From NCBI RefSeq assembly GCF_003334405.1, contig NZ_QOWM01000063.1: a stretch of DNA of 566 nt, one strand, 5' to 3'. Positions 1-566 of this stretch are shown in pieces (position 1 is the stretch's first letter; each line of letters starts with the position of its first letter). Below the pieces are notes generated by a model that searched no databases, was not told where the DNA came from, and worked only from the letters and a program-made list of their open reading frames with translations. Source of the DNA: Escherichia coli (GTDB lineage: Bacteria > Pseudomonadota > Gammaproteobacteria > Enterobacterales > Enterobacteriaceae). Made by a program: the position numbers and the translations under genes.

Positions 1-57
1 GTCCTTCATCGCCTCTGACTGCCAGGGCATCCACCGTGTACGCTTAGTCGCTTAACC
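1..57 (-). rRNA. rrl: 23S ribosomal RNA, 5' end (partial; gene continues beyond the left edge of the window)
   Basis: Reverse complement of 1..57 reads GGTTAAGCGACTAAGCGTACACGGTGGATGCCCTGGCAGTCAGAGGCGATGAAGGAC, which matches the canonical mature 5' end of enterobacterial 23S rRNA as I recall it. Position 57 is the inferred mature 5' nucleotide; the exact end depends on processing. Confidence 0.93.
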
Positions 58-164
58 TCACAACCCGAAGATGTTTCTTACGATTCATCATCGTGTTGCG
101 AAAATTTGAGAGACTCACGAACAACTTTCATTGTTCAGTGTTTCAATTTTCAGCTTGATCCAGA

Positions 165-177
165 TTTTTAAAGAGCA
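165..177 (-). promoter_or_regulatory. boxA-like antitermination element in the spacer (minus-strand TGCTCTTTAAAAA)
   Basis: Reverse complement of 165..177 is TGCTCTTTAAAAA, one mismatch from the rrn boxA consensus TGCTCTTTAACAA. It sits between tRNA-Ala and 23S, where the spacer boxA lies in E. coli rrn operons. Function inferred from established knowledge of the rrn Nus-factor antitermination system, not from sequence alone. Confidence 0.55.
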
Positions 178-240
178 AAACTTCGCAGTGAACCTTTGCA
201 GGTACACTCTGAAGTATTTTTTATTTAATCACTACAGAGA

Positions 241-316
241 TGGTGGAGCTATGCGGGATCGAACCGCAGACCTCCTGCGTGCAAAGCAGGCGCTCTCCCA
301 GCTGAGCTATAGCCCC
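241..316 (-). tRNA. tRNA-Ala (anticodon UGC), 76 nt including encoded 3' CCA
   Basis: Reverse complement of 241..316 reads GGGGCTATAGCTCAGCTGGGAGAGCGCCTGCTTTGCACGCAGGAGGTCTGCGGTTCGATCCCGCATAGCTCCACCA. It has a 7-bp acceptor stem, a D-loop motif AGCTCAGCTGGGAGAGC, anticodon stem CCTGC/GCAGG with loop TTTGCAC (anticodon UGC; plus-strand gca at 281..283), a T-arm GGTTCGATCC and an encoded CCA end. It matches the E. coli spacer tRNA-Ala(UGC) as recalled. Which paralog (alaT/alaU/alaV) cannot be told from this window. Confidence 0.95.
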
Positions 317-358
317 ATAACATGTAGTTAAAACCTCTTCAAATTTGCCGTGCAAATT

Positions 359-435
359 TGGTAGGCCTGAGTGGACTTGAACCACCGACCTCACCCTTAT
401 CAGGGGTGCGCTCTAACCACCTGAGCTACAAGCCT
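359..435 (-). tRNA. tRNA-Ile (anticodon GAU), 77 nt including encoded 3' CCA
   Basis: Reverse complement of 359..435 reads AGGCTTGTAGCTCAGGTGGTTAGAGCGCACCCCTGATAAGGGTGAGGTCGGTGGTTCAAGTCCACTCAGGCCTACCA. It has an anticodon loop CTGATAA (anticodon GAU; plus-strand atc at 399..401), a T-arm GGTTCAAGTCC and an encoded CCA end. It matches the E. coli spacer tRNA-Ile(GAU) as recalled. Which paralog (ileT/ileU/ileV) cannot be told from this window. Confidence 0.95.
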
Positions 436-503
436 GTAGAGGTTTTACTGCTCATTTTCATCAGACAATCTGTGTGAGCACTGCAAAGTACGCTTCTTTA
501 AGG

Positions 504-566
504 TAAGGAGGTGATCCAACCGCAGGTTCCCCTACGGTTACCTTGTTACGACTTCACCCCAGTCAT
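504..566 (-). rRNA. rrs: 16S ribosomal RNA, 3' end (partial; gene continues beyond the right edge of the window)
   Basis: Reverse complement of 504..566 reads ATGACTGGGGTGAAGTCGTAACAAGGTAACCGTAGGGGAACCTGCGGTTGGATCACCTCCTTA, the conserved 16S 3' terminal domain (helices 44-45) ending in the anti-Shine-Dalgarno sequence CACCTCCTTA (plus-strand taaggaggtg at 504..513). Position 504 is the inferred mature 3' nucleotide. Confidence 0.95.

Follow-up and report, generated by a model that had tools for sequence, protein, structure and literature searches.

The closest described counterparts of the locus analyzed here are the 16S–23S spacers of the E. coli K-12 operons rrnH, rrnA, and rrnD (ileV-alaV, ileT-alaT, and ileU-alaU). 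RNase III cleaves the leader-trailer helices of the ribosomal RNA (rrn) precursor, and subunit biogenesis depends on these helices; the published pre-23S helix comprises 27 bp and leaves the 8-bp helix H1 (PMC10250234). Ahead of 23S there is a second set of boxB, boxA, and boxC (PMC10250234), and boxA is the NusB/NusE loading site of the rrn antitermination complex (PMC2724277, PMC10250234). The region directly upstream of 23S was also described as the source of StyR-44, a growth-regulated RNA that was detected by Northern analysis in S. Typhi and E. coli; its 7 copies lie upstream of every 23S gene as "part of ribosomal operon", and its discoverers "cannot rule out" that the RNA represents a metastable intermediate in the maturation of rRNA (PMC2943607). 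The possibility of a by-product was raised again in a later tigecycline study (PMC3511261). Gene conversion among E. coli rrn operons has been documented as well (PMC8022953).

The whole stretch of DNA under analysis (566 nt, hereafter the window) is, with near certainty, an Ile/Ala-type 16S–23S internal transcribed spacer (ITS) of an E. coli rrn operon, carried on the minus strand. As such it is already known, being an ordinary section of one of the best-studied loci of bacteria, and it contains no pointer to an undescribed system. The window was scanned with all Rfam families at a permissive threshold and with ARAGORN for tRNA genes. The two programs gave the order 16S 3' end, tRNA-Ile(GAU), tRNA-Ala(UGC), and 23S 5' end on one strand (Table 1). 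The minus strand carries the only two tRNA genes called by ARAGORN, and the Rfam scores of both exceed the gathering score of the tRNA family (29 bits). The score of the 23S match is below the gathering score of its family (50 bits) because only 57 nt of 2,925 are present; RefSeq places the 23S start at the same base (57) in identical E. coli copies. The RefSeq annotation of identical copies also has 16S, tRNA-Ile, tRNA-Ala, and 23S beneath the matches. The anti-Shine-Dalgarno sequence CCUCC of 16S is located at 507-511.

Table 1 Features of the 566-nt window, listed from the 5' to the 3' end of the transcript.
Feature	Position	Strand	Evidence or remark
16S rRNA 3' end, last 63 nt	504-566	-	Rfam SSU_rRNA_bacteria, model 1471-1533, 61 bits, E = 6.6e-17; RefSeq annotation
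16S trailer	436-503	-	68 nt
Pre-16S helix, trailer strand (predicted RNase III substrate)	458-498	-	Duplex with rrn leader upstream of 16S
tRNA-Ile(GAU), 77 nt, CCA encoded	359-435	-	ARAGORN (gat); Rfam 66.3 bits; RefSeq annotation
tRNA-Ile to tRNA-Ala spacer, 42 nt	317-358	-	Alignment
tRNA-Ala(UGC), 76 nt, CCA encoded	241-316	-	ARAGORN (tgc); Rfam 65.6 bits; RefSeq annotation
boxB-like hairpin GUGUACCU-GCAA-AGGUUCAC	188-207	-	Centroid structure of 174-240(-), segment z = -2.6
Spacer boxA UGCUCUUUAAAAA, core UGCUCUUUA at 169-177	165-177	-	Pattern match
StyR-44 (Rfam RF01830), ~109-nt processed spacer fragment	65-173	-	Rfam 123.3 bits, E = 3.7e-21
Pre-23S helix, leader strand (predicted RNase III substrate)	58-113	-	Cofold and duplex with 23S 3' flank
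Variable ITS block with small hairpin ACGAU-GAUGA-AUCGU (80-94)	78-94	-	Alignment with K-12 rrnH, rrnA, and rrnD; cofold
23S rRNA 5' end, nt 1-57	1-57	-	Rfam LSU_rRNA_bacteria, model 1-57, 30.2 bits, E = 2e-7

An earlier sequence-only reading had described the window as an Ile/Ala-type rrn spacer on the minus strand, and ARAGORN, Rfam, and the RefSeq annotation of identical copies agree on this point. ARAGORN returned exactly the coordinates which that reading had given for the two tRNA genes, the 16S 3' end and the 23S 5' end that it had placed on the minus strand were both found there by Rfam, and the nine-base core of the boxA-like motif that it had noticed is exact relative to the published rrn boxA. 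Its statement that the window is fully accounted for holds in so far as there is no room for a novel system, but it was slightly generous: approximately 105 nt have no individually assigned role beyond that of precursor spacer, namely the 42-nt Ile-Ala spacer and a 63-nt stretch from tRNA-Ala to boxA. These precursor-only stretches give no suggestion of a system. The Ile-Ala spacer is unchanged across the three K-12 copies in the alignment, and its stand-alone fold was no better than those of shuffled sequences (z = -0.38), so that no autonomous structure is claimed for it; it is precursor sequence that is lost in tRNA end maturation. Most of the otherwise unassigned spacer is covered by elements which the sequence-only reading did not name, StyR-44 (RF01830) and two strands of leader-trailer helices.

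Among the seven rrn operons of MG1655, the full spacer is carried by three (rrnH, rrnA, and rrnD) and the other four match partially. Gene order and strand in the window are the same as in these three K-12 spacers, and the segment lengths (68, 77, 42, 76, and 183 nt) are identical to those of rrnH and rrnA. The tRNAs and the rRNA ends are the same as in all three, and no difference falls there. The window is 99.5% identical to K-12 rrnH with 3 substitutions (window positions 229, 85, and 80) and 99.3% identical to K-12 rrnA with 4 substitutions (489, 483, 130, and 80), while in K-12 rrnD the block at window positions 78-94 is divergent and 9 nt shorter. The alignment indicated that this block varies between paralogous operons. 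The window has the base of rrnH at position 130 and the base of rrnA and rrnD at position 229, and it is thus a mosaic of spacer polymorphisms. Such a pattern is expected because gene conversion occurs between E. coli rrn operons.

The occurrence of the window was surveyed by megablast against 5,426 complete E. coli genomes (5,435 matching records). Every one of the 5,426 genomes was matched, and the median number of places per genome was 8, which bears out the view of the sequence-only reading that the region is multi-copy. In 4,748 of the 5,435 records the best place reached an identity of 99% or more, and the identity was 100% in 18 records, all of them complete E. coli chromosomes. The exact base combination of the window is thus found in only 18 of the 5,435 records. 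A single base, at position 130, separates the window from the commonest near-identical allele, U in the window versus C in the RNA sense. This position closes a GAAA-tetraloop hairpin (118-137) as a U–G or a C–G pair, and the base pair is preserved. Both alleles are present within K-12, U in rrnH and C in rrnA and rrnD.

A further scan for exact copies of an 86-nt segment of the spacer between tRNA-Ala and 23S covered one genome per species for approximately 100,000 species; apart from the E. coli representative, the only match was a contig binned as uncultured Desulfovibrio. Together with the 100% identity to chromosomes, this spacer core separates E. coli from other Enterobacteriaceae. These sequence matches support an E. 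coli-like origin; Shigella and E. coli are not told apart in the collections used. In strains 08-00022 and TUM1881, identical copies are surrounded by a complete rrn operon (leader, 16S, ITS, 23S, and 5S). In these two strains, the perfect copy has yrdA as its neighbor on one side and 5S-tRNA-Thr-5S-yhdZ on the other, which is the position of rrnD. Matches with one mismatch were located at the rrnD locus in one strain and at rrnH in another. An assignment to one named operon (rrnD, rrnH, or rrnA) was rejected on the basis of near-perfect matches at both rrnD and rrnH, and 566 bases do not suffice to identify either the operon or the strain.

The pairing partners of the helix strands in the window lie outside it, and the pairing was examined on the complete operon around the identical copy in strain 08-00022. 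In the computed structure, nt 1-8 of 23S (window 50-57) pair with the 23S 3' end as helix H1. Cofolding placed window positions 58-77 contiguous with H1, and outer pairs were formed by 98-102 and 107-113, with the local variable hairpin (80-94) between the inner and outer pairings. The pre-23S duplex has 28 near-contiguous pairs (8 in H1 and 20 in the spacer) and 12 outer pairs, 40 intermolecular pairs in all, with a ΔG of -55.7 kcal/mol and a z score of -7.6 versus 300 shuffles. The computed pairing agrees with the published helix described above (PMC10250234). The pre-16S duplex has 39 intermolecular pairs (ΔG = -57.0 kcal/mol, z = -9.0). The 16S trailer folded alone was no better than shuffled sequences (z = -0.89), its real partner being the distant leader. 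The two strongly pairing strands are those of the known pre-16S and pre-23S leader-trailer helices, for which RNase III cleavage is described in the literature. At window positions 483 and 489, which lie in or beside the trailer strand of the 16S helix, K-12 rrnA departs from the window and from rrnH and rrnD.

In the search for boxA, up to 3 mismatches were allowed and 0.26 matches were expected by chance. The boxA-like sequence TGCTCTTTAAAAA at 165-177(-) has one mismatch from the 13-nt leader form. Its first nine bases, the core UGCUCUUUA, match exactly at 169-177(-), 112 nt upstream of 23S, and are identical to the published rrn boxA (PMC2724277). The closest known elements are the antitermination region of the rrn leader (boxB-boxA-boxC) and the lambda nut sites; the 9-nt core is the same, and a hairpin stands before it as it does in the leader. 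After the core, the window has AAAA whereas the rrn leader has ACAA, and no boxC equivalent was identified in the window. By analogy with these sites, the spacer boxA would serve as the NusB/NusE loading site ahead of 23S, with binding and antitermination as described in the literature. A GCAA-tetraloop hairpin (188-207) stands 10 nt upstream of boxA; it is seen in the centroid fold only, and the minimum free energy structure differs. This hairpin is a plausible boxB with moderate support, and the order agrees with the published boxB-boxA arrangement.

The StyR-44 match is full-length (model 1-107 of 107), well above the gathering score of 54, and lies directly upstream of 23S, which starts at 57. 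The segment includes the GAAA-tetraloop hairpin at 118-137. Compared with the model, the window copy has a 2-nt insertion in the loop of the terminal hairpin, which is the known variable block, and no other difference of note. The position upstream of 23S and the bacterial family are the same as for the described StyR-44 (Chinni et al., 2010, PMC2943607).

Taken together with the published work on rrn operons, these elements suggest the following pathway. The window would be transcribed within one long pre-rRNA, in which the operon leader would pair with the 16S trailer, and the leader and trailer of 23S with each other. Both long helices would be cut by RNase III, as the literature describes for such helices, and would help subunit assembly. 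The tRNA-Ile(GAU) and tRNA-Ala(UGC), with their encoded CCA ends, would then be freed by the ordinary enzymes of tRNA end maturation. The spacer boxA, through the Nus-factor binding known from the literature, would re-load or retain the antitermination complex on RNA polymerase before 23S. The section of the transcript between boxA and the site of RNase III cleavage would linger for a while as StyR-44, in line with the published suggestion of a by-product.

It is conceivable that StyR-44 (65-173, minus strand) acts itself, for example as an RNA sponge or a reporter of the rRNA synthesis rate, rather than being an inert by-product of 23S maturation, and in its strongest form this would make it a genuine trans-acting regulatory small RNA carved from pre-rRNA, like the sponge RNAs derived from tRNA spacers. 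We consider both the general and the strong form very unlikely. The fragment is a discrete, growth-regulated species in S. Typhi and E. coli (PMC2943607), and as sYJ118 it was induced by tigecycline or ampicillin (PMC3511261). All 7 copies were also reported as strongly up upon carolacton treatment, its abundance differs in biofilm formation of Yersinia ruckeri, and the segment folds better than shuffled sequences (z = -2.7). These responses are nevertheless explained because the abundance of StyR-44 should follow rrn transcription and processing, and boxA and the 23S leader-trailer helix already impose constraints on its sequence. The discoverers and the authors of the tigecycline study themselves allowed for a metastable intermediate or by-product (PMC2943607, PMC3511261), and the literature found reports neither a target nor Hfq dependence nor a phenotype for StyR-44. 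The probability that one of the short open reading frames encodes a small protein, such as the 66-aa frame at 131-331(+) with a TTG start, is practically negligible. Ten frames of at least 20 aa exist mechanically in the window, and nothing more speaks for them; all are 66 aa or shorter, most have non-ATG starts, and a window of 566 bases is expected to contain such frames by chance. All ten were rejected as chance frames that lie inside or antisense to the tRNA and rRNA genes. Neither a promoter-like nor a terminator-like site was found on either strand of the window (0 each), which counts against a small protein, and there is therefore no hint of an independent transcription unit. Three further Rfam candidates on the plus strand were rejected: HPnc0260 at 361-392 (30.5 against a gathering score of 59) and Plastid-ycf2 at 243-316 (17.6 against 65.7), both antisense to tRNA and probably reflecting tRNA-like helices, and OxyS at 172-268 (17.5 against 75, E = 0.33). 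The rest of the window and its opposite strand suggest no additional element, and the scans for promoters, terminators, open reading frames, and Rfam families uphold the earlier assertion that a novel system finds no room here.

The remaining alternative concerns the record from which the window came. We consider it highly unlikely that the window derives from a record with an assembly or labelling error (a chimeric metagenome contig, a contig in which rrn copies were collapsed, or an rrn "plasmid") with no bona fide chromosomal operon behind it. Records of this kind carrying the sequence at 98–99% identity do exist, but the perfect matches are in complete chromosomes in a normal rrnD context, and a mis-assembled origin, even if true, would alter the provenance and not the identity of the sequence. 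The preferred reading of the window as a chromosomal Ile/Ala-type spacer has a practical import only, in that several near-identical copies are present per genome. Reads or contigs that end in the window are ambiguous because of these copies. The only handles that separate the copies are window positions 80, 85, 130, 229, 483, and 489 and the block at 78-94, and gene conversion shuffles them between operons.

The risk of mis-assembly in this multi-copy region, of which the sequence-only reading had warned, is illustrated by a chimeric metagenome contig and by "plasmid" records that hold only an rrn operon. The contig binned as Desulfovibrio (USBZ01000017.1, 'uncultured Desulfovibrio sp. UMGS1580') contains the window at 99.3% identity within 11755-14492 and bears a full 16S, both tRNAs, StyR-44, and the start of 23S. 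Of the 13 kb searched, the first 11.7 kb gave no E. coli match. Its 16S is 61–93% identical to that of E. coli up to approximately nt 790 and then approximately 100% identical through the ITS into 23S. Judged by this change in sequence identity, the contig is an assembly chimera with its junction in the conserved core of 16S. Given this breakpoint, both horizontal transfer and a broader range of hosts, which had been considered to explain the 'Desulfovibrio' match, were rejected.

Several circular records labelled as plasmids also carry this spacer. The small E. coli 'plasmids' range from 6.5 to 20 kb (CP088634.1 with 6,560 bp, and CP088631, CP088766, and CP088420 with 9–20 kb). CP088634.1 consists essentially of one rrn operon and a single hypothetical CDS and is most likely a circularised repeat contig. 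NZ_OY843411.1 (E. coli pF524-3), which has a twin in NZ_OY757140.1, is a 93,760-bp circular 'plasmid' with no typed replicon. It carries fadAB, pepQ, trkH, hemG, and an rrn operon with the Ile/Ala spacer, followed by hdfR, maoP, yifB, and ilvLXGM. In this record the chromosomal segment from rrnC to rrnA is closed into a circle on a hybrid rrn operon, and the size of the record is in keeping with the distance between the rrnC and rrnA repeats in K-12. It may represent a real excised circle, an amplification, or an artefact of the assembler. In the plasmid collection, several records (4.8–4.9 Mb) are whole E. coli chromosomes filed as plasmids, with 8 rrn-type places each.
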